This document shows, piece after piece, positions 18,884 to 29,032 of a stretch of DNA of 64,000 nucleotides. The translations under genes and the position numbers were made by a program. The DNA comes from Nitrospiraceae bacterium (GTDB lineage: Bacteria > Nitrospirota > Nitrospiria > Nitrospirales > Nitrospiraceae). The notes beneath the pieces were generated by a model, which saw only the letters and a list, made by a program, of their open reading frames with translations, did not search any database and was not told the DNA's origin. The DNA is taken from assembly GCA_050246315.1 (NCBI GenBank), contig JBFWWG010000003.1, forward strand, positions 224,001-288,000, read 5' to 3'. Positions within the stretch are counted from its first letter, which is position 1, and each line of letters starts with the position of its first letter.

Positions 18884-19126
18884 ATGGCCAAAAAGACCAC
18901 TCGGTTGTTCTTCAGCGGGAATAGCCAGGCCGTCCGCATTCCGAAAGAGTTTCAGATGGAAGGCGATGAGGTCGAGATCCAGCGCAGGGGCAACACCCTT
19001 GTGCTCCGCCCCATGAAAAAGTCCTGGGCAGCGTTGACCGATAGCTTGAAGAACTTTACGCGAGACTTTATGGAAAGCGGACGGCAGCAGCCCCTCTCAC
19101 AGAAACGGAAGCGGCCCTTTTCATGA
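18884..19126 (+). CDS. vapB: VapB antitoxin (AbrB/MazE fold)
   Basis: LFFSGNSQAVRIPKEF; ATGA overlap with the PIN toxin. Confidence 0.9.
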   Translation: MAKKTTRLFFSGNSQAVRIPKEFQMEGDEVEIQRRGNTLVLRPMKKSWAALTDSLKNFTRDFMESGRQQPLSQKRKRPFS

Positions 19127-19524
19127 AGGTGATGCTGGACACCAACATCTGCATCTATCTCATCAAGAAGCAACCTCCTTCCGTGCTGGAACGTTTCACG
19201 GACCATCCGGTCGGCGACATCGGCATCTCGGTCATCACATTGGCAGAACTCGAATACGGTGCGAGCAAGAGCCGGCATCCGCTGCGAAATCGGCTGGCCC
19301 TTTACCAATTCATTACGCCACTGGAAGTGGCTGACCTCGATCGGAATGCAGCGACCACCTATGGAAGACTCCGTGCTTCTCTAGAGACCAAGGGCACAGT
19401 CGTCGGAGCAATGGACCTCTTGATCGCTGCCCACGCGATCTGCCTGGGAGTCAAGCTGGTGACCAACAATGTACGGGAGTTTCAGCGAATCCCTGGATTG
19501 CGAGTGGACAATTGGGTGTCGTGA
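19123..19524 (+). CDS. vapC: VapC PIN-domain toxin
   Basis: MLDTNICI, ISVITLAEL, GAMDLLIAAHA, LVTNNVREF. Confidence 0.93.
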   Translation: MKVMLDTNICIYLIKKQPPSVLERFTDHPVGDIGISVITLAELEYGASKSRHPLRNRLALYQFITPLEVADLDRNAATTYGRLRASLETKGTVVGAMDLLIAAHAICLGVKLVTNNVREFQRIPGLRVDNWVS

Positions 19525-19557
19525 CCGACAACAGAGGCTGAAACGGTGCTCATCACT

Positions 19558-20254
19558 ATGAAGATCCAATCAGTGACCTATAACAACCGCAAAACGGCGT
19601 TTCAGGTGAGAGGGTCCAAGAAGTCAATGCTGCTTCCCTATTCGAAGGTCGATCCTCAACCCAGTGCCGACGATCCCATTGCCAAGCTCTACGTGGACAG
19701 GGAGCTTGGGCGGGAAGGGTTCACCTATGTGTTGGCCTCGGGCAAAGAAGGGACCGTCCATAGTGAGCAGGTCCTGGAGTACAACCAGGATCCGAACTAT
19801 CTAGCCCGCATTATTCATGACGATGCGTCACGAAATGGCGGAGTCGCATGGCGAGACGGGCGTGCGGAGCCGCAAGGAAGGGAGGCAGACTTGAAACAGT
19901 CTGTTGACCGACCGAGCGGCGAGTCCGCCAGCCTGCACACCATGGACCCCGTGCGCAGGCTTGTCGCAGCGGCGAATCCGTCATTGCAGTAGAAACGTTC
20001 ATGAATATTGCGGACCAGGAGATGCCTTGTTGCATAAGTTGACGGACGAGGCGCAACGACGAACGAAGGTCAGTCCTTTATCAAAGCGTGAGATGATCCG
20101 CAGGCTCGGGACCTCCGCCACGCAACTCTATCGCTTGCTCGACCAGACCAACTACCGCAAGTCGATCGACCAACTCTTGGCCCTGCTGCACATATTGGAT
20201 TGCGATGTCGATGTACTCGTGCGAACAAAACGCTCGCCGAGCAAGGCCGTCTAA
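19558..20254 (+). pseudogene. HTH-containing (antitoxin-like) gene interrupted by a MITE
   Basis: Removing 19805-20018 fuses ...YNQDPNYL to GDALLHKLTDEAQ...LSKREMIRRLGTSATQLYRLLD... in frame, giving one 160-aa ORF with a C-terminal HTH. Confidence 0.75.
19805..20014 (+). mobile_element. MITE-like element, copy 2 (210 bp)
   Basis: TIRs CCCGCATTATTCATGA / TCATGAATATTGCGGA, flanks CTAG/CCAG. Inserted in a coding sequence. Confidence 0.75.
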
Positions 20255-20464
20255 TCTCCGAAGGCACGGGCAGTGAGAGAGCACGACGATTTCTCAAGAT
20301 TGAAGGGACGTAGGAATCCCTATATCCTGTCGTTGAAGCAGCCGATTACGATGGGACTGGGCGACTGTCGAAAACAGGCATCCGTGAAGAGGACAAGGAA
20401 GACATCTGGTCGGGCTCCGTTCGTGAGCGCTAAGTAGATGGCTTCATAAGTCAATTCTCATGCC

Positions 20465-20514
20465 TGACCCTCTACTCTGCTCCTCTACTCTGCTCATGAC
20501 CCTCTACTCTGCTC
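20465..20514. repeat. Three copies of the 13-mer CTCTACTCTGCTC
   Basis: At 20470-20482, 20483-20495 and 20502-20514; copies 1 and 3 are preceded by TGACC. Confidence 0.8.
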
Positions 20515-20823
20515 CGAGCAAGGCCGCGTGATATCTGTAGGCGGATGAAGCGGAAGGGGACATCAGGAGAGGAGGCGGATCAACTGGGGAGCGACGCGGG
20601 AGCTGATACTCGGCGAGGAATGGCGCTCTGTGGACTATCGAGGAAACTCGCGATCGGGGCCGTCGGCTTTCGCCAATCGGCCCCGATCGCGCCACCCCAG
20701 GCCCTCTCTTCGGCGTTCCCGCGTCGGCGAGAGGCCGGGAAGCAGGCTCATGGACACCCGCTGCCTCACCCGGCCTGTCCGTGAACAGACCGGCTCCGGG
20801 CCGGCCAGAGCCGTGCGGGCGGA

Positions 20824-20944
20824 CTGGACAAGACGGAATCCCAGGTTGTTGTTCCGGTTGTCGGCATTGTTCCTGTTCCGGTTCGACGCACGGAGGTTCT
20901 CCGGTTTGTTGTTCCAGGACCCGCCGCGGATCACACGCTGGCCG
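20824..20944 (-). ncRNA. DGR template repeat (TR)
   Basis: 121-bp ungapped match to 22498-22618 with 17 mismatches, all at TR adenines (minus strand). Contains 10 AAC codons. Confidence 0.95.
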
Positions 20945-22013
20945 TCTTGTGGCCCGCTCCCCTTGTGAACACGGCCTGGGAGAAGATCGCTCTGCGTAGA
21001 CCCTCCGTGTCGGCATGTTTCGCATGGCCGATCCAGCTCTGAATGGAGGCCACCATCATGGTCCATTCCAGGCGCCCGGTTCGATAGATCTGCGCCATCC
21101 GGCGGAATCGCCGTGCGAACCGATGACCGTTATCGTTCCGGAGCCGACGGTGCTCTGGATAGACGATGTACCCCAGGATATTGAGCCCGTCAACCGTGCG
21201 CGTCACGTGGGCCTTGTTGGGATGGGGTTGGAGCCGGTCGGTGGCAAGCCGCTCACGGACGGCTGCGCGAATGTCGGTCAGTCTGGCTTTATCGTCCCCC
21301 AGCACGACCAAATCATCCACGTAGCGCAGGTAGGGCCGGACGCGCAACCCCTGCTTGATGTAGTGATCCAGGTCGTCCAGGTAGAGATTGGCAAAAAATT
21401 GGCTCGTCAGGTTGCCGATGGGGATGCCCACCCGTCGTTCCCACGGCGTAAAGAGATTATCGCCGGCAAAATAGCATGGCTCGGTCCCCTGTCTTGGAGA
21501 CCCATCGATAATACGATCCAACAGGGCCAGGACGCACCTATCCTTGATACGCCGGCGAAGCTTCGCCTTGAGCAGCTCGTGATCGATGGAGGGGAAGTAC
21601 TGCCGGACGTCCATCTTCAAGACGTACCGATAGGTCTGCGCCCAGGCTTGATAGCGGTCCACCGCCGCATGGACGCCCTTGCCGTGACGGCAGGCATAGG
21701 AGTCGGCAATGAAGGTCCGGTCGAGCGGTGGCTCGATCACGTTCATGACCGCATGGTGCACGACCCGGTCGCGAAACGGTGCGGCGGCAATCACACGCGG
21801 CTTGCGTTCATAAATTGTGAACAGACGGTAGTCATCCGGCCGATAGGTCCCCTCCTGAAGCTCGCGCTGGAGCGACAGTACCTCCCCTTCAAGAGCAAGA
21901 CCAAAATCCGCGACGCCCTGACGACTCCGCTTGCCCCGCCGCGCCTTCCGATAGGCGGCGAGCAAATTCTCAAAACTGACCAGCCGCGGCCACAGTTCCC
22001 CGAGTCGTGTCAT
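20931..22013 (-). CDS. DGR reverse transcriptase
   Basis: APFRDRVVHHA, LKMDVRQYFPSIDH, GIPIGNLTSQFFAN (DGR-type), YLRYVDD. 360 aa with no maturase or endonuclease extension. Confidence 0.95.
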   Translation of the reverse strand: MTRLGELWPRLVSFENLLAAYRKARRGKRSRQGVADFGLALEGEVLSLQRELQEGTYRPDDYRLFTIYERKPRVIAAAPFRDRVVHHAVMNVIEPPLDRTFIADSYACRHGKGVHAAVDRYQAWAQTYRYVLKMDVRQYFPSIDHELLKAKLRRRIKDRCVLALLDRIIDGSPRQGTEPCYFAGDNLFTPWERRVGIPIGNLTSQFFANLYLDDLDHYIKQGLRVRPYLRYVDDLVVLGDDKARLTDIRAAVRERLATDRLQPHPNKAHVTRTVDGLNILGYIVYPEHRRLRNDNGHRFARRFRRMAQIYRTGRLEWTMMVASIQSWIGHAKHADTEGLRRAIFSQAVFTRGAGHKTASV

Positions 22014-22366
22014 ATGTTTTCTTGAGACGCAGCTCGACTACGGACCCAGCCGCCGATCTGCCGCCCGAGGTCATCAAGGAGTCTCGCTCCATGCTCGTAC
22101 TGCCGGATCGCCATAACTCCTAGTTCGTGGGCCAGCCGCCAGAGGTGGCGCACGACCTCCAGACGCAGATTCGCGCGATGCAACGGCACGTCCTTGTTCC
22201 GCGCATAGGCTGCCTCCACCAACAGCTCCAGCACCTCAAGCAATCCGGCTTCCAACCGCTCGCCCAATGTGAACCGCCGGGCACGGGGGAATTTATCGAG
22301 TTGCGGGATCAGCCACAGAAGCAAGTCATGACAGGATTGGACAGCTTGGGGGAGGCTGGTCGTCAT
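22010..22366 (-). CDS. avd: DGR accessory variability determinant (four-helix bundle)
   Basis: 118 aa, DKFPRARRFTLGERL...IGGW; ATGA overlap with the RT. Confidence 0.9.
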   Translation of the reverse strand: MTTSLPQAVQSCHDLLLWLIPQLDKFPRARRFTLGERLEAGLLEVLELLVEAAYARNKDVPLHRANLRLEVVRHLWRLAHELGVMAIRQYEHGARLLDDLGRQIGGWVRSRAASQENI

Positions 22367-22401
22367 GTGCCGTCAACCTGAGCCGTTTAGGATTTCTCTG
22401 A

Positions 22402-22438
22402 CCGGCCCTCGCCCGATGTCGAATCGGGCGAGGGCCGG
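22402..22438. other. Perfect 16-bp stem, 5-nt loop hairpin downstream of the DGR target
   Basis: CCGGCCCTCGCCCGAT-GTCGA-ATCGGGCGAGGGCCGG, about 45 bp after the target stop codon. Confidence 0.8.
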
Positions 22439-22482
22439 CCTCTTTCGGAAGTGTAAAGGGTAAAAGGACAAAGGATAAAGGG

Positions 22483-24402
22483 TTATTCGGTCATGTCCTG
22501 GACAAGACGGAATCCCAGGTTGCCGTCCCGGAAGTCGGCATTGACCCCGTTCCGGTTCGACGCACGGAGGAGCTCCGGCCTGTCGACCCAGGACCCGCCG
22601 CGGAGCACACGCCGGCCGCAATCGCCTTTGCCCCCCTCGAGCCAAGCAGAGCCATCAGTCGGCGCCCCTTGATAATCATCGTGCCAGCAATCCTCCACCC
22701 ATTCCCACACATTCCCGCTCATATCATGCAGCTCAAAACTGTTTTTTGTCTTCTGCCCAACAGGGTCGGTGCGATCGGTGCCGTAGACTGCGTAATCCTT
22801 CAATTCTTGCGGTGACGAGGCTCCAGCCCACTTGTTGTTCTTCTCTCTGCCTCGCGCCGCATACTCCCACTCGGATTCGGTCGGAAGTCGATAGGCGTTC
22901 CCTGTTGCCCTGGACAGCCACTTGGCATAGTCTTTCGCCTCACCCCACGAGACATAGATCACGGGCCGTCTGTCACGACCCCAGCCTGCATCCCCTGGTC
23001 GCTGCCCACCTGCCAATTCCAGATACCGGTCATACTCTTCAAAGGTCACTTCGTATCTGCCCATCTTAAACCCATTGATCCGGACTTGGTGTTTCTCATC
23101 GTCACCCTGTTCATAGGTGCCTTCAGGAATCTCCACCATGGCTGGCTTAGCGACCTGCACAACACCAGAGCGAACCAGGAGACTGGATCCGACATATCGA
23201 ATCTCTTTCCACAGAAAAGCGACTGGCAAGCCAACCAGCGCCAGGATGAGGCCGGCACTTAAAAGCTGTACCGTGTGCTTCGCTCGGCGTTCATTCCAAC
23301 CCTGAATCCAATGCGCCACCTGCCCGACGAGATAATCATGCTTGAATTCGTACCAGTCTGTTCCTTGACGCTCTTCGTGGCGAAGGACTCCATTACCGGC
23401 AAGACTTGTGAGGATAGTCCGTATCCGCTGGTCGTTGGAGACGCGTAAGGTATCCCTTAGGTCTTCGATGGGTCGATAGCGTTTCGTATTATCGGGCGTC
23501 TTCAGTGCGTTAAGAATGCGGACCATTAACGGTTTCTGCGTCCGAGGCATCGAGTTCAATGGCTCGAACACGCTCTTCTCGAGTATGTCTTTGGCTTTCC
23601 CACATGCCTCATAGTCCGCAGGCGTGATTGCGCCTCCTCCTTGCGGCTGTCTTCTCTGAAACTCTCTCCACAGAGTCCAGCAGACAATTTGGAGTTTGAT
23701 CGGCGCAACTCTGCCTGATCCATCCTTCAGGTCTTCGATAAGCCGATCCACAAGGTCCGATTCATAGTCATACCCGACGACTCTCACAGGCATCTCAATC
23801 GCGCGACGCGCCTCTTGCGTTGCTAACGAGGTCAGCCGGACATTCGCATTGTTTTGAAAGATCGACGGGATGACCTCCCTGAACTCGTGCAGGTCGGCGA
23901 AGTAATCCTCACGGAGAGACAGCACGAGGAACACAGGAAGCTGCTCGTCGTATCGGACGAGCGCGACCTGACGAATAAACTCTTCCCTTAACTTTGGACT
24001 CTCACGGAAGACGATGAAAAATTCTTCAAACTGGTCGACAAAGACGACGAGTCGAATTTTCCTATCTTCGACGATTTTCGTGAGAAACCCATGGAGTTCC
24101 TTAGGCTGTCCGTCGACATTGAGTTCCTTCGACACGGCATCTTGGATCGAGGTGACGGGATTGCTTTCCAGTCTGGTATGGATGGTCTTATAGCCGAGCT
24201 TTTCGAGTTCCGGCCTGACCCCTGCGTTGATCAAGGACGTCTTGCCTGAGCCGGAAGGAGAAAATAAGACGAGCAGCCGTGAGGAAAGCACCTCGCCAAC
24301 CATTTTTTGAACTTCCTGCTCCCGTCCAAAAAACAAGTCCGCATCCTCAAGGCGGTAGTAATCCAGATATCGATAGGGAGACCTGACGGGTGTATCGTTC
24401 AC
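22483..24402 (-). CDS. DGR target: nSTAND1-like NTPase + TM helix + FGE-sulfatase (C-type lectin fold) domain
   Basis: SPYRYLDYY..LFFGRE, Walker A SPSGSGKTS, Walker B VFVDQFEEFF, LSLREDY, YEFKHDYL; TM LLSAGLILALVGLPVAFLW; RLPTESEWEYAARG, DMSGNVWEW, RGGSW, LGFRLV. VR at the C-terminus. Confidence 0.9.
   Translation of the reverse strand: MNDTPVRSPYRYLDYYRLEDADLFFGREQEVQKMVGEVLSSRLLVLFSPSGSGKTSLINAGVRPELEKLGYKTIHTRLESNPVTSIQDAVSKELNVDGQPKELHGFLTKIVEDRKIRLVVFVDQFEEFFIVFRESPKLREEFIRQVALVRYDEQLPVFLVLSLREDYFADLHEFREVIPSIFQNNANVRLTSLATQEARRAIEMPVRVVGYDYESDLVDRLIEDLKDGSGRVAPIKLQIVCWTLWREFQRRQPQGGGAITPADYEACGKAKDILEKSVFEPLNSMPRTQKPLMVRILNALKTPDNTKRYRPIEDLRDTLRVSNDQRIRTILTSLAGNGVLRHEERQGTDWYEFKHDYLVGQVAHWIQGWNERRAKHTVQLLSAGLILALVGLPVAFLWKEIRYVGSSLLVRSGVVQVAKPAMVEIPEGTYEQGDDEKHQVRINGFKMGRYEVTFEEYDRYLELAGGQRPGDAGWGRDRRPVIYVSWGEAKDYAKWLSRATGNAYRLPTESEWEYAARGREKNNKWAGASSPQELKDYAVYGTDRTDPVGQKTKNSFELHDMSGNVWEWVEDCWHDDYQGAPTDGSAWLEGGKGDCGRRVLRGGSWVDRPELLRASNRNGVNADFRDGNLGFRLVQDMTE
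22498..22618 (-). repeat. DGR variable repeat (VR)
   Basis: Encodes GRRVLRGGSWVDRPELLRASNRNGVNADFRDGNLGFRLVQ versus TR GQRVIRGGSWNNKPENLRASNRNRNNADNRNNNLGFRLVQ. The last 25 nt are identical to TR. Confidence 0.95.
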
Positions 24403-25286
24403 GGGGTCCTACGAATTCCGAGTTGGGGAACGTCGAGGGTAAACTTCACGGCAACTTTTCTGGCAAATTCGGTTAGGTCTTCGTCGAAGATCTGTATATT
24501 TCGTCGCAACCAGTATGATCGAATGAAATGCGACGGGCTCTTCATGAGGGCATAGGCCGTGATGGCTCTTGATCTCGCGGTTTGCGTGGAGAGCACCCCC
24601 TCCCAGATCACGCGAAAGTTCCAATCTTCGAGACTGTATCCCAGGAACAAGAGACTGCATTGTGGGATTACTTGCTTGCGGAAATATTCAGGCATTCCCT
24701 TATCGATGTCGGTCAGATTTGCCAAGTATTGAATGTAGTCCGATTGGGTAATGACAAGACTTTCGGGATCTTCGATCGTGCCATGCATCTTATGCATAAC
24801 GAGTTCTCGGTCGCGAAACTGGAATGGCCCCCTAAAATGACCGGTCCTTGGATCCAGCGGCTTATGGACATGCTTGGTCAGAATCCGACCTTGTGACGTA
24901 AGTGCAGTCTCCAAAAGCGTGTCGTAATTTGATGTCAGAATGATCTTGATGTGGTTCAGTTGGGAGAGCACAGTGTGGATGGGCCGTGGCTGACAAGGTA
25001 CCTGAAGCTGCTGCTGCAAAGCGCTTTCCAGCGGCTGTCTGTTGCCTCCATGGAAATAGACATGGTGCTCAGCGACTTTGGCAAGATCATAGGCCCCGTT
25101 TGCATATTGGCACTGTGCAGCTAAGACCTTTGCCAGCTCACCTCCGGTAGGAAGACCAGGATTCTGCGCTCCGTCTGTCCCAGGGTAAGCCGTGCAGGCG
25201 CCCGCACCCAGGAATACCACGCATTGTTGAGATTCAAGGGCGGTGAAGATGATGCTGAGATCCTGGTCAGCCAGCCCATTCATCAC
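24399..25286 (-). CDS. SIR2-family (SIR2_2-like) protein
   Basis: VFLGAGA, ILTSNYD, KMHGT, LLFLGYSLEDWN. Its stop overlaps the GTG start of the DGR target (GTGA). Confidence 0.88.
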   Translation of the reverse strand: MMNGLADQDLSIIFTALESQQCVVFLGAGACTAYPGTDGAQNPGLPTGGELAKVLAAQCQYANGAYDLAKVAEHHVYFHGGNRQPLESALQQQLQVPCQPRPIHTVLSQLNHIKIILTSNYDTLLETALTSQGRILTKHVHKPLDPRTGHFRGPFQFRDRELVMHKMHGTIEDPESLVITQSDYIQYLANLTDIDKGMPEYFRKQVIPQCSLLFLGYSLEDWNFRVIWEGVLSTQTARSRAITAYALMKSPSHFIRSYWLRRNIQIFDEDLTEFARKVAVKFTLDVPQLGIRRTP

Positions 25287-25827
25287 GGGACTCGCAACGG
25301 CTCTCGTTCGGTGAATCTGCTTTGGTTTTCATTGGGGGCATTGGAGATAGCTGTAGATGAGGCTGGACGAGTCGCTGGAGCAACTGAACGGCTGTCCCCA
25401 CACCAGCACCTCACAGATATGAGGTACGATCATTTCATACCACTGTGGCCAGCGCGTAGGCAGGTCAACGAATTATCTGCATCTGCCGATTGGGAGTCAA
25501 GCCAGCCGACTCATGGTTTCGACGAAATACATGTATTTCCGAAAGGTGACACGGTCGATCGGACGGGTCGTGCGGTCCAATGCCATTCTTAGTAGAATTT
25601 GCGAAGCGGTTTCCACCGTGAGCCCTGTCCAATTCTCCTCCTCACGAGGGTTCTCGGACGTGGGAGTAAACAGGGTAGTAAGAATGGGATATTCTGATTT
25701 TCTGACCGTGACCATTCGCTGTTCGTCTCCGGCAAACTAGAATGTCCTCAAGTTAGCCGGCTGGAACGGATGCGCGGTGAGGTTGGAGCGACGGCAGGAC
25801 CTGCCGTGATAGAGACGGGCGGTCACT

Positions 25828-25914
25828 GTTCGCGGCATCATGGCGCGACCGAACCCGTGCACCATTCGTCAGCCGACCACCTTTAGTCTTCCAGCGTCGA
25901 AATATCCCCCGCGT
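25828..25914. repeat. Diverged direct repeat of the acs 3' end and downstream DNA (copy A)
   Basis: 77/87 identity with 27085-27171. A further 24/25 match joins 25758-25782 to 26934-26958. Confidence 0.85.
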
Positions 25915-26028
25915 ACGGGCCTTGGCCTCAGCAGGTGATTCAGCAAGTGCCCGTGACTCCACCGGCGGCTTCACGATAGTTGCATTTTTGCAATTGTTGT
26001 CGGATAGTGAATGTTAGGAGAACGGAGT

Positions 26029-26235
26029 ATGAAATTCACGGTCACCATTACGCGAGACGAAGACGGGATGTTCATTTCCGAATGCCCGGCTATTCCAGGC
26101 TGCGTCAGTCAAGGCAAGACGGAAGAGGAAGCGCAGTCGAACATTCAGGACGCCATCAAACAATGTTTGGAAGTCCGTGCTGAGATGGGCATGCCGCTCA
26201 CCATCACCACACGCCAAGTCGAAGTTCCGGTGTAA
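26029..26235 (+). CDS. hicB: HicB-family antitoxin (short form)
   Basis: MKFTVTITRDEDGMFISECPAIPGCVSQGKTEEEA. Confidence 0.88.
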   Translation: MKFTVTITRDEDGMFISECPAIPGCVSQGKTEEEAQSNIQDAIKQCLEVRAEMGMPLTITTRQVEVPV

Positions 26236-26465
26236 TGCCGCCTCCTCCTGTTCTTTCTCCCGCAGCAGTCATCAAGACCTTCGAGCGACTCGGTTGGCGA
26301 GTGGTTCGACAGAAAGGCAGTCATATCATCATGACAAAATCCGGCCACATTGCCACCCTGTCGATTCCTAATCATTCAGAAGTTGCGCGAGGCACGCTTC
26401 GCACCCTGATCTCCAGAGCAGGGTTGACGGTGGAACAGTTTATCGAAGTCCTACAGAGGGACTGA
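26235..26465 (+). CDS. hicA: HicA-family toxin
   Basis: GWRVVRQKGSHIIM...LSIPNH.EVARGTLRTLI; TAATG overlap with hicB. Confidence 0.9.
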   Translation: MPPPPVLSPAAVIKTFERLGWRVVRQKGSHIIMTKSGHIATLSIPNHSEVARGTLRTLISRAGLTVEQFIEVLQRD

Positions 26466-26551
26466 GCGGTAAGCCCGCCGGCTGAATGGGTCATAGGAAG
26501 GGTGGCCAAATCGGAGGCAGACATATGGCTAACCGAATTCGGAAGCTCCAA

Positions 26552-26800
26552 ATGAAGGAAGTTCCGCTTTCTGAGGTGAAGGATGATCTGTCGCACCTGC
26601 TTCGCGAGGCAGAGAAGCAGGAGATCGTGATTACCCGGTATGGCAAACCTGCCGGGGTCCTGATCGGATTCAAGTCCGAAGACGACTGGTTCGATTATCC
26701 ACTTGAGAACGACCCACGGTTCCTTCGGCGTATCGAGGCCGCGCGGGAAAGTTTGCGCACAGGCCGCGGCGTCAAGCTCGAAGATGTAAAGGGACGGTGA
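26552..26800 (+). CDS. Phd/YefM-family antitoxin with no intact partner toxin
   Basis: MKEVPLSEVKDDLSHLLREAEKQEIVITRYGKPAGVLIG. Confidence 0.85.
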   Translation: MKEVPLSEVKDDLSHLLREAEKQEIVITRYGKPAGVLIGFKSEDDWFDYPLENDPRFLRRIEAARESLRTGRGVKLEDVKGR

Positions 26801-27084: not shown

Positions 27085-27171
27085 GTTCGCTGCATCATGG
27101 CGCGACCGAACCCGCGCGCCGTTCGCCAGCCGACTGCCCTTAGTCTTCCAACGTCGAAATATCTCCCGCGT
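27085..27171. repeat. Direct repeat copy B, overlapping the acs stop codon
   Basis: Pairs with 25828-25914. Confidence 0.85.
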
Positions 27172-29032
27172 CCTGGCCCAACTCCTTCGCCTTCAGCACA
27201 CGGCGCATGATCTTGCCCGACCGCGTCTTGGGCAGCGAGGGTACAATATCGATCTCTGCCGGCACCGCGATCTTGCCCAACTCGGTCAGCACGTGGTTCT
27301 TGAGCGACTGAATCAGGTCCGTACTGTCCTGGTGTCCGTGCTTCAGAATCACGAAGGCCTTGATCGATTCGCCGACGGTTGCATGCGGCTTGCCGATGAC
27401 CGCCGCTTCCGCCACGGCCGGATGGCTCACGAGCGCGCTTTCCACTTCCGCCGTGCCGATCCGGTTGCCGGCCACCTTGATCACGTCGTCGGCCCGGCCC
27501 ATGAACCAGAGATACCCGTCTTCATCTTTCCGGCAGACATCGCCCGCGGTGTAGCAATTGGGAATGGTGTTCCAGTAGACCTTGTAGCGGTCCGGGTCTT
27601 TGTAGATCGTCCGCATCATGGCCGGCCAAGGTTTCTTCACCACGGCAAAGCCGCCGGCATTGGCCGGCAGGCTCTTTCCCTCCCGGTCCACGACATCCGC
27701 CTCTACTCCTAGAAACGGCCTCGTCGCCGAGCCAGGTTTGAGCGGCACGGAGGGGAGGGGCGTCACCAGAATCATGCCGGTCTCCGTCTGCCACCAGGTG
27801 TCCATGATCGGCTTGTCGCCGCCCGTCACGCGATGGAACCATTCCCAGGCTTCGGGGTTGATCGGTTCGCCCACGCTGCCGAGCACCCGCAGGCTGGCGA
27901 GGTCGTACTTTCTCGGCCAGTCCTCTCCATAGCGCATGAGCAATCGAATCGCCGTCGGCGTCGTATAAAACACCGTGACGCCGTAGCGGGCAATGATGTC
28001 CCACCAGCGGCCGGGGTTCGGATAATCCGGCTTGCCCTCGGCCGTCAGGATCGTGGCGCCGTTCAAGAGCGGTCCATAGACGATGTAACTGTGTCCCGTG
28101 ACCCAGCCCGGGTCGGCCACGCAGAAATAGAGATCGTCCTCTTTCAGATTGAACACGTACTTCGTCGTCAAGTAGGTCCCGACCATGTAGCCGCCGTGCA
28201 CATGGACGACACCCTTCGGCTTGCCGGTTGTGCCGGAGGTATAAAGAATGTACAGCGGGGTTTCCGAATCGAGTGGCTCGGCTTCGCAGACCGCAGGCTG
28301 ATCCCTCAGCCAGTCCTCCCAATCGATTTCCTTGGGCGCGGCGAGTGGCCCGCCGGGTTTCTCGCGTCGGACCACCACCACGTGCTCGACGGTCCGGCAG
28401 TGGGCCACCGCCTGATCGACGACCGGCTTCAGTTGAATCACCTTGGCTCGGTCGTACCCGACATCCGCCGTGATCACCAGTCGCGACTCGGCATCCTGAA
28501 TGCGACTTTCAAGGGCCGGCGCGCTGAAGCCGGAATAGACCACGCTATGGATCAAACCGAGACGCGCACAGGCCAGCATCGCGACCATTTGTTCGGGAAT
28601 CTTCGGCAGATAGATCGTGACCCGATCGCCCTTCCGCAACCCAAGCGCTTTGAGCGCGTTCGCGCAACGGCAGACCTGGCGATACAGCTCGGCATAGGTG
28701 AAAATGCGCTCCTCGCCCTTTTCGCCGACCCAAATAAGGGCGACCTTGTGGCGACGCCAGGTTTTGACGTGGCGATCGAGGCAGTTGTACGCCATGTTGC
28801 AGGTCCCGCCGACGAACCATTGGGCCCAGGGATACTTCCATTCCAACACCTGCTTCCAGGGAGTGAACCAGTCGAGTTCCTTGGCCGCCTGCTCCCAAAA
28901 GGCCTCGGGGTTCTGGATCGACAGCCGATAGGCTGTCTCGTAGTCCGGGATGTAGGTCGAGGCGACGGTTTCGTGATTCGGTCGGTAGACGCGGGCTTCC
29001 TTCAACAGCGTATCCACTTTATCGTCGGCCAT
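27140..29032 (-). CDS. acs: Acetyl-CoA synthetase
   Basis: YILYTSGTTGKPKG, ADPGWVTGHSY, SVGEPINPEAW, DTWWQTETG, PKTRSGKIMRR. Confidence 0.96.
   Translation of the reverse strand: MADDKVDTLLKEARVYRPNHETVASTYIPDYETAYRLSIQNPEAFWEQAAKELDWFTPWKQVLEWKYPWAQWFVGGTCNMAYNCLDRHVKTWRRHKVALIWVGEKGEERIFTYAELYRQVCRCANALKALGLRKGDRVTIYLPKIPEQMVAMLACARLGLIHSVVYSGFSAPALESRIQDAESRLVITADVGYDRAKVIQLKPVVDQAVAHCRTVEHVVVVRREKPGGPLAAPKEIDWEDWLRDQPAVCEAEPLDSETPLYILYTSGTTGKPKGVVHVHGGYMVGTYLTTKYVFNLKEDDLYFCVADPGWVTGHSYIVYGPLLNGATILTAEGKPDYPNPGRWWDIIARYGVTVFYTTPTAIRLLMRYGEDWPRKYDLASLRVLGSVGEPINPEAWEWFHRVTGGDKPIMDTWWQTETGMILVTPLPSVPLKPGSATRPFLGVEADVVDREGKSLPANAGGFAVVKKPWPAMMRTIYKDPDRYKVYWNTIPNCYTAGDVCRKDEDGYLWFMGRADDVIKVAGNRIGTAEVESALVSHPAVAEAAVIGKPHATVGESIKAFVILKHGHQDSTDLIQSLKNHVLTELGKIAVPAEIDIVPSLPKTRSGKIMRRVLKAKELGQDAGDISTLED

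Follow-up and report, generated by a model that had tools for sequence, protein, structure and literature searches.

The closest described counterparts of the diversity-generating retroelement (DGR) that we analyzed in a Nitrospira-lineage bacterium are the STAND NTPase-FGS conflict systems, in which an nSTAND1 center is joined to a C-terminal FGS/FGE lectin-fold domain that is diversified by a DGR (PMC8195603, Kaur, Iyer, Burroughs, Aravind, eLife 2021). As described there, the DGR, consisting of a reverse transcriptase (RT) and a four-helix accessory protein, lies adjacent to its target or elsewhere in the genome, and several copies with different N-terminal effectors occur per genome. These effectors comprise TIR, DRHyd, calcineurin, caspase, trypsin, kinase and FHA domains, fused N-terminally or attached via adaptor domains (PMC8195603). 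Also comparable are the clade 5D cellular DGRs of multicellular bacteria, for example Thiohalocapsa PB-PSB1 DGR 3 and 6, with nSTAND1/NACHT-CLec targets of which one DGR often has two; incomplete loci, genomes with several DGRs and variable region (VR) diversity in environmental metagenomes are likewise reported (PMC10907252, Dore et al., PNAS 2024). The locus studied here lies in a window of 64,000 nucleotides, C3:224001-288000 of a 4.39-Mb, 30-contig assembly, and comprises, all on the minus strand and in this order, a SIR2-like gene, the DGR target gene with its VR, the accessory gene avd, the RT gene, the template region TR1 and a structured RNA of ~175 nt (Table 1).

With the STAND NTPase-FGS systems, the locus shares the combination of nSTAND1 with a diversified FGE domain as well as the presence of several such copies in one genome. 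It differs from them in that the target has a bare N terminus and a separate SIR2 gene precedes it. SIR2 occurs once in the main text of PMC8195603, in another system, and has no occurrence in the main text of PMC10907252. The features listed above for clade 5D recur here as well, although the host belongs to the Nitrospira lineage, and the likeness of the window RT to that clade goes by the target types and the two-target habit of its relatives.

Mechanistic parallels extend to the element of Bordetella phage BPP-1 (mtd-avd-TR-brt), with its adenine-specific transfer from template region (TR) to VR, its Avd partner and its lectin-fold target (bioRxiv 10.1101/2023.10.23.563531, PMC3240598). 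They include an RNA after the TR with a TR-3′-end duplex and a tetraloop stem-loop of ~9-10 bp, and a GC-rich inverted repeat 3′ of the VR. Unlike in the phage, TR1 follows the RT gene, with its first 14 nt within that gene, and TR and VR have identical final 25 nt, with no differences of the kind that separate the initiation of mutagenic homing (IMH) sequence from IMH*. The hairpin exceeds that of the phage in length, its loop has 5 nt and it starts at a distance of 57 nt, with a pyrimidine motif between it and the VR, and the target is a cellular signaling protein rather than a phage tail fiber. For the other half of the locus, the nearest counterparts were SIR2 + nSTAND1-HEAT modules in metagenome contigs (L056, L057, L065, L066, L068 and L069), with SIR2 proteins 35-64% identical to ours and, in L057, an NTPase and hydrophobic segment at 51% identity. 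These modules carry HEAT repeats (L068 the NTPase only) where the window has a DGR-served FGE domain.

The literature already contains DGR-diversified STAND NTPase/FGS sensors, remote targets and genomes with multiple loci (PMC8195603, PMC10907252). Our analysis adds a SIR2 partner encoded by a separate gene, with evidence of a swapped-in sensor half, a host of the Nitrospira lineage that recurs in many engineered systems, an RNA after the TR that is supported by covariation for this RT lineage, and a conserved motif after the VR. The SIR2 partner and the pyrimidine motif after the VR are modest additions to known systems.

An intact DGR with an adenine-only mismatch pattern

A repeat search recovered TR1 and VR1a, the VR of the window target, as a direct pair of 121 nt with 86% identity. 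In the ungapped minus-strand comparison, all 17 mismatches fell on TR adenines (10 A>G, 5 A>T and 2 A>C); given 32 adenines among the 121 nt of TR1, the hypergeometric probability of this outcome is 2.6e-12. Eleven codons are altered in the 639-aa target frame (Q>R, I>L, N>V, N>D, K>R, N>L, R>G, N>V, N>F, N>D and N>G), the final 25 nt are the same in both repeats, and homology ended abruptly at both edges of the 121 nt in an extended comparison. TR1 holds 10 AAC codons, and adenine mutagenesis can reach a stop codon from one codon only, K608 (AAA).

A first-pass annotation, made from the letters of the window alone, had called a complete DGR on the basis of these same figures. The computed alignment reproduced its 121 bp without gaps, its 17 mismatches and their three classes, its counts of adenines and AAC codons, its list of codon changes and the shared 3′ end; mismatches at bases other than adenine, which it had said would undermine the call, were looked for and numbered zero. 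Its description of intact avd and RT genes, the latter with PIGNLTSQ and YVDD, likewise held: Avd scored above the model cutoff, the RT is an open frame of 360 aa and the target ends in an FGE/C-type-lectin-type domain. Beyond that annotation, we found a second, remote VR, a paralogous DGR and the nature of the target.

Start overlaps of 4 nt connect the SIR2 gene to the target gene and avd to the RT gene. The closest solved structure to the RT was 8ub7_A (E 3.3e-53), a match far above group II and retron RTs, the next being a group II RT (6.8e-21). 8ub7 is presumably the Bordetella phage RT; no paper naming 8ub7 was found. None of the libraries searched with the RT returned a DGR-RT-specific model; the IGNLTSQ and YVDD motifs are presumably marks of DGR RTs. 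Avd gave no sequence match to solved structures in the PDB at E ≤ 0.01. The SIR2-like protein is a predicted NAD-consuming effector. Its residues T118, N120, Y121, D122, H168 and G169 are invariant among 14 relatives, and we assume the TxNYD and H-G positions to be catalytic. A promoter and terminator scan gave a site count no higher than in shuffles; within it, a single promoter-like site lies at 25500-25472(-), with a score of 10/12. Complex prediction with the SIR2 and nSTAND1-head alignments scored 0.00 in both runs and was uninformative either way.

Table 1 Features of the DGR operon in the window and FGE-tailed loci of the same genome. Positions without a contig label are window coordinates.
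Feature	Location	Strand	Description
SIR2-like gene	24399-25286	minus	295 aa; Pfam SIR2_2 E 3.5e-25; PADLOC ThsA-type SIR2 E 2.1e-23
DGR target gene	22483-24402	minus	639 aa; nSTAND1 aa 9-367, hydrophobic helix aa 376-401, FGE/C-type-lectin-type aa 420-634 carrying the VR
VR1a	22498-22618	minus	Variable region; codons 596-635 of the target gene
Pyrimidine-rich motif	22453-22482	minus	~30 nt directly 3′ of target stop codon: CCCTTT..CCTTT..CTTTT..CCCTTTAC
GC-rich inverted repeat	22400-22440	minus	18-bp stem, 5-nt loop; starts 57 nt after VR end; dG -25.0 kcal/mol (DNA parameters)
avd	22010-22366	minus	118 aa; NCBIfam NF033474 DivGenRetAVD 97.1 bits (cutoff 80); Pfam bAvd E 9.4e-17
DGR reverse transcriptase	20931-22013	minus	360 aa; RVT_1 E 8.1e-19; IGNLTSQ and YVDD motifs
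TR1	20824-20944	minus	Template region; first 14 nt inside RT gene end, including stop codon
Structured non-coding RNA	20650-20823	minus	~175 nt 3′ of TR1; counterpart of the Spacer of Bordetella phage DGR RNA
SIR2 + nSTAND1-FGE	C3 (window)		Intact DGR 1; cis VR1a, 0 non-A mismatches
TIR-FGE, 470 aa	C14:41788-41908		Remote VR1b for TR1; 18/18 mismatches at TR adenines, 0 non-A
TIR-nSTAND1-FGE, Avd, RT (79% identical), TR2	C5:67032-67152 (L005 7033-7153)		Intact DGR 2; cis VR with 18 A + 8 non-A mismatches
TIR-nSTAND1-FGE	C4:22024-22144 (L006 7025-7145)		Fits TR2 from position 8 on, 14/14 mismatches at A, p 1.5e-9; RT reduced to a 31-aa fragment beside
TIR-FGE, 411 aa	C14:18778-18898		32-aa Avd fragment beside; no matching TR
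DUF4062-nSTAND1-FGE, 905 aa	C18		No DGR genes adjoining

Remote targets and other DGR loci in the genome

All contigs of the genome were scanned with the TR, counting mismatches at non-adenine positions only. Six genes with FGE tails were counted in total, along with two DGRs that are intact and three that have decayed (Table 1). TR1 matches, besides VR1a, the VR1b of a TIR-FGE gene on contig C14, whose 470-aa product has a hydrophobic segment of its own. The paralogous DGR on C5 shows eight non-A mismatches to its own cis VR, so that the clean adenine-only pattern of the window is not automatic in this genome. There the cis target was seemingly lost and the remote C4 target retained, and each of the two intact DGRs appears to serve a remote target.

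Some further traits of these loci were recorded. At a distance of 1.2 kb 3′ of VR1b, there is a degenerate orphan TR copy (C14:40303-40625, L004 5304-5626), accompanied by the conserved RNA and by ~27 nt from the 3′ end of an RT gene. It has no avd or RT beside it and shows 15 non-A differences to VR1b, which matches TR1 on C3 instead. The C3 and C14 targets are 83-97% identical over a block of ~90 nt 5′ of the VR (window 22619-22710), compared to 57-77% over the rest of the FGE domain; because the sequence upstream of the TR is the RT gene, the TR cannot explain this block, which suggests gene conversion between the two targets. DUF559 endonuclease-like genes lie just 3′ of the post-VR hairpin on C18 (L076 5232-5651; full, 139 aa) and C4 (L006 6582-6842; fragment, 86 aa), and avd and RT are missing or fragmentary at both of these loci.

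Variation confined to the VR in environmental metagenomes

Near-identical DNA was present in 20 runs of seven studies, encompassing landfill, wastewater, bioreactor, aquatic and sludge metagenomes. We compared Logan contigs of four runs (X12, X16, X17 and X20, each from a different study and without a flag as a possible source) with the window over 20500-25300. In all four, the SIR2 gene and most of the target showed no differences (22684-25300 or 22618-25300), and the same was true of the pieces covering RT and avd and of the TR pieces (20776-20923, in X20 20776-20919; 20896-21649, in X17 20909-21345 then 21319-21649). The long contigs of X16 and X17 stopped at 22618, that is, at the VR edge. 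Short contigs spanning the VR carried 15 differences each, in X16 over 22493-22635 and in X17 over 22485-22617. A 1391-nt contig of X20 matched only 22441-22647, with 24 differences and two gaps, and was unlike the window thereafter. In X12, the VR core (22521-22587) was not covered by any contig.

Among the matches listed, all 24 rows within 22498-22618, representing 20 distinct positions, were TR-adenine sites, and the variant letters equaled neither VR1a nor VR1b of the assembly; these matches comprise 12 of the 15 differences of the X16/X17 variant, and 37 further rows of the variant table lie beyond them. X16 and X17 do not count as two independent events because they carry the same variant at the 12 positions listed. 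This sharing of one VR1a variant across an aquatic and a sludge study points to a common population origin or to selection of one variant. VR-limited variation was seen at both TR1 targets. The data support diversification in nature, as the VR differs at up to 15 of the 32 adenine sites inside kilobases of identical sequence, which is what an active DGR predicts. They also lend weight to the recent or ongoing mutagenic retrohoming proposed in the first-pass annotation, with TR and long flanks invariant and the VR differing, among the matches listed, at TR-adenine sites.

A chimeric target protein

A single open reading frame (ORF) encodes the Pfam domains nSTAND1 (E 1.4e-52) and FGE-sulfatase (PF03781, E 8.1e-47) of the target, and its FGE domain gave a match to TvpA, the DGR variable protein of Treponema denticola (2y3c, E 4.3e-19). 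Walker A (GSGKTS) and Walker B (DQFEE) residues of the NTPase are invariant in the alignment, and no PADLOC model matches the protein. The nSTAND1 domain begins at residue 9, leaving no N-terminal effector or adaptor domain; the paralogs in the genome carry fused TIR or DUF4062 at this end. The segment at aa 376-401, preceded by RRAKH, is the sole strongly hydrophobic stretch between NTPase and FGE (Kyte-Doolittle 19-residue mean 2.29 at aa 380). One hydrophobic segment was found in each of the four targets examined.

The two halves of the protein differ in their nearest relatives. Residues 1-400, hydrophobic segment included, are 51% identical to the SIR2-linked nSTAND1-HEAT protein of L057 (E 3e-143) and 24-25% identical to the TIR-nSTAND1-FGE paralogs of the same genome, whereas residues 401-639 are 60% identical to the C5 paralog. 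At the DNA level, similarity of the window to the paralogous loci starts near 23070-23157 and, for C5, continues through avd, RT, TR and RNA to 20655. As judged from these comparisons, the target is a chimera with an NTPase head from a conserved SIR2 + nSTAND1-HEAT module and a tail from a DGR cassette. In the simplest reading, the SIR2 + nSTAND1 module would have lost its repeat sensor and gained the FGE tail of the cassette, with the junction near the membrane helix.

Relatives of the SIR2 protein came from metagenome contigs, as no match at E ≤ 1e-20 was obtained in 200 other genomes of the host family. An nSTAND1 gene follows SIR2 in 6 of the 16 metagenome loci examined, and these nSTAND1 proteins start directly with the NTPase; five of them (L056, L057, L065, L066 and L069) continue with HEAT repeats, while L068 shows the NTPase only. 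The 4-nt overlap of the SIR2 and nSTAND1 genes recurs at L057. None of the 16 loci contained a TR/VR pair when scanned. L059 and L060 offer space downstream of SIR2, yet no same-strand ORF of at least 150 aa is present there. At six loci (L056, L058, L059, L060, L064 and L068), SIR2 is fused to a caspase-like CHAT domain in one protein of ~500 aa, followed by an nSTAND1 gene in L056 and L068.

A structured RNA after the TR

The ~175 nt after TR1 are kept in the other TR copies of the genome and in relatives. For structural analysis, we aligned 17 sequences, comprising three from this genome, three from the Nitrospira lineage and 11 from Pseudomonadota, eight of them Competibacteraceae. RNAalifold returned a consensus structure of 44 pairs. 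On this consensus, 96.7% of cells were paired, as opposed to 39-46% when partners were slid by one to three columns, and 51 cells were changed on both sides of a pair, compared to 2-13 in the slid versions. The covariation score of 0.298 exceeded the 0.05-0.10 of the slid versions and was reached in none of 500 shuffles. Alignments of related sequences may outscore their shuffles even where no structure exists; of the two controls, the slid one carries more weight.

In this structure, the terminal CAG of TR1 and the CGCCCGC next to it form pairs with GCGGGUG...CAUG further downstream, and the strands of this TR-end pairing enclose a stem of up to 10 pairs with a 4-nt loop. An Rfam search over 19500-26000 at E ≤ 1 gave no family match, only two sub-threshold chance hits, Antizyme_FSE at the post-VR hairpin and P10. 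In the Bordetella phage DGR RNA, the adenosine used for priming is described as presented by a TR:Spacer (TR:Sp) duplex, and Avd binds a stem-loop (~9 bp, capped by a tetraloop) immediately 3′ of the TR; stem-loops of this kind have been predicted for 207 of 278 DGRs (bioRxiv 10.1101/2023.10.23.563531). The layout found here fits this plan of TR:Sp duplex and Avd-binding stem-loop, and by analogy a role in priming may be assigned to it.

Putative signals after the VR

Two putative signals lie between the VR and avd. The 14-nt core of the pyrimidine-rich motif occurs six times in the 4.39-Mb genome against 0.07 expected, in all six cases directly after FGE-type tails. A looser version of the pattern follows 25 of the 31 VR tails from this genome and its relatives, which included Nitrospirota, Pseudomonadota and Myxococcota-labeled contigs, and several of the six misses carry the motif by eye. 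It is absent 3′ of TRs. We found no description of this motif in the literature searched, supplements being outside its scope, and the word 'pyrimidine' has no occurrence in PMC3240598.

Of the six FGE tails in this genome, five are followed by the GC-rich hairpin, with stems of 11-18 bp (9-18 pairs in the terminal hairpin) and varying loops of 3-5 nt. In the window, no T-run comes after it and it was not called as a terminator; many Competibacteraceae loci have a 9-bp stem, often then a T-run. A hairpin or cruciform 3′ of the VR is a known enhancer of homing, for which phage DGRs are described as having a stem of 7-10 bp, a GRNA loop and a distance of 4-34 bp (PMC3240598).

Related DGR loci and RT phylogeny

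Scanning GTDB genome contigs with the RT yielded 48 loci, 36 of which contain A-biased TR/VR pairs. The proportion was 20 of 25 among loci with an RT identity of at least 49%; in 19 of these 20, the TR lies at the RT 3′ end, as in the window. VRs occur on both sides in six of these loci and only downstream in two. The VR-bearing genes of relatives encode DUF4062-nSTAND1-FGE (three Nitrospira-lineage loci), TIR-FGE, caspase-(PEGA)-FGE, kinase-FGE, metallophosphatase-NACHT-FGE and NACHT-FGE proteins. A SIR2 domain was found in none of the 35 ORFs scanned at related DGR loci.

An RT tree of 29 sequences, from which L014, L018, L031 and L043 were left out for internal stops in their tblastn range, placed both RTs of the genome within a Nitrospirota clade (support 97/92) that is sister to a Pseudomonadota clade consisting mostly of Competibacteraceae. 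The two RTs were not sisters to each other, at a support (92/81) that is not strong. Members of the RT clade each adjoin A-biased TR/VR pairs. Within the host family, the RT had a match at E ≤ 1e-60 in 14 of 201 genomes (a count that includes this genome and the unpublished G006), in 8 of 39 genera and in all three other genomes of the same genus.

Proposed mechanism and alternative explanations

On the basis of homology, the minus-strand operon would be transcribed through SIR2, target, avd, RT, TR1 and the structured RNA. In analogy to the Bordetella phage element, a complex of RT and Avd would bind this RNA, and the duplex between the TR 3′ end and the RNA downstream would position the priming nucleotide. 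TR1 would then be copied into cDNA with random incorporation opposite adenines, and the cDNA would replace VR1a in the neighboring target and also VR1b in the TIR-FGE gene on C14. Up to 18 codons could be recoded in this manner, corresponding to a computed potential repertoire of ~10^17.7 protein variants. This part of the model very probably follows the established DGR scheme. Given that all parts are intact, that the adenine-only pattern holds at two targets and that natural variation is limited to the VR among the matches listed, the locus is very probably a working DGR.

Downstream of diversification, the target would be a single-pass membrane protein with its nSTAND1 NTPase in the cytoplasm and its variable lectin-fold domain outside. 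A ligand bound by the lectin domain may cause the NTPase to switch or oligomerize, upon which SIR2 would consume NAD+ in an abortive-infection or STAND-type conflict response. We suggest such a sensor and effector pair because of the domain families, the conserved Walker A/B and SIR2 residues, the fused TIR domains of the paralogs and published comparative work (PMC8195603, PMC10907252). The odds that the target is indeed a diversified ligand sensor of this topology, switching on a co-transcribed SIR2 in a STAND-type conflict response, seem to us about even.

Several observations weigh against this overall picture. The population evidence consists of assembled contigs rather than reads, so that frequencies are not derivable, and 3 of the 15 X16/X17 differences fall outside the matches listed. 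X16 and X17 show one and the same variant at all 12 positions listed, and the VR contig of X20 belongs to the C14 paralog rather than to VR1a. VR1b lacks the GC hairpin although it shows the adenine-only pattern, and the window hairpin, with its 18-bp stem, 5-nt loop and distance of 57 nt from the VR, departs from the phage DGR pattern. The defense role, finally, derives from domain families and published comparative genomics. Some of these points would suit a DGR that is intact but inactive, in which case the VR differences would be long-standing polymorphism among strains: ongoing change is beyond what contigs can reveal, the shared X16/X17 variant fits such a history, and decay does happen in this lineage, as the genome holds decayed DGR loci. 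We nevertheless consider inactivity improbable, since 2.6-kb flanks together with TR, RT and avd showed no differences in four studies while the VR differed at up to 15 of 32 adenine sites, which places the rate of change in the VR far above that elsewhere; moreover, non-A mismatches number zero at two targets against eight at the decayed cis VR of the paralogous DGR, and all operon genes are open. An artefact, in which paralogous tails (C14, C5 and C4) were cross-mapped onto VR1a or contigs were misassembled, would draw on the C14 target being near-identical over ~90 nt 5′ and ~45 nt 3′ of the VR, and on the origin of the X20 contig just mentioned. This is very improbable in view of the X17 contig, which we assign to VR1a because it reaches 13 nt past the VR, where VR1a and VR1b differ, with no row at its depth there among the matches listed. 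Its letters match neither VR1a nor VR1b at 7 of 12 positions among these matches. In addition, the X20 contig differs from the VR1b of the genome, too, at TR-adenine sites, and tails of the TR2 type differ at 11-12 non-A positions, no such change being present among the matches listed.

With a working DGR accepted, the target might still serve something other than defense, namely cell-cell recognition, kin discrimination or environmental signaling in aggregates. The variable domain is predicted to lie outside the cytoplasm, where it suits surface or periplasmic ligands, and regulatory tuning has reportedly been proposed for cyanobacterial DGR targets. As published work emphasizes, a role of such targets as antigen sensors has yet to be tested (PMC10907252). 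We regard a non-defense role as rather unlikely when set against the partner domains, SIR2 and TIR, with a PADLOC anti-phage model match (ThsA), against the NTPase head from a conserved SIR2 + nSTAND1-repeat module, a layout described for STAND defense proteins (PMC10907252), and against the toxin-antitoxin genes that flank the locus.

We tentatively propose a further reading that is possible yet less likely than not. Here, the FGE tail with its VR, the pyrimidine motif, hairpin, avd, RT, TR and structured RNA would form a portable adaptive-sensor cassette, which replaced the germline HEAT-repeat sensor of a SIR2 + nSTAND1 defense pair beside the membrane helix; the pyrimidine motif, and not the hairpin, would let one TR serve targets genome-wide. 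If true, this would represent a natural domain swap, in which a DGR-diversified lectin domain can substitute for the repeat sensor of a STAND immune protein, facing the periplasm. The idea that STAND sensors diversified by DGRs are a bacterial counterpart of adaptive immune receptors has been put forward before, and the published papers themselves call it untested (PMC10907252). The locus described here has the advantages of a readily assayed predicted output enzyme, SIR2, and two targets per TR, with relatives that combine the same NTPase head with an ordinary repeat sensor as a built-in comparison. The host lineage, of the nitrite-oxidizer type, is central to nitrification in wastewater plants, and the same strain-level DNA occurs in metagenomes of seven studies; in engineered ecosystems, VRs could therefore be used as rapidly changing markers of phage pressure or of the history of populations.

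Neighboring features

Toxin-antitoxin genes are located on both sides of the DGR operon (window 18884-19524, 26011-26465 and 26486-26800) and comprise a MazE-type antitoxin with a PIN toxin, HicB with HicA, and a Phd/YefM antitoxin. A helix-turn-helix (HTH) gene is present at window 19904-20254. Upstream of the SIR2 gene, a direct repeat of 94 nt with 87% identity occupies window 25828-25921 and 27085-27178 (the latter C3:251085-251178).

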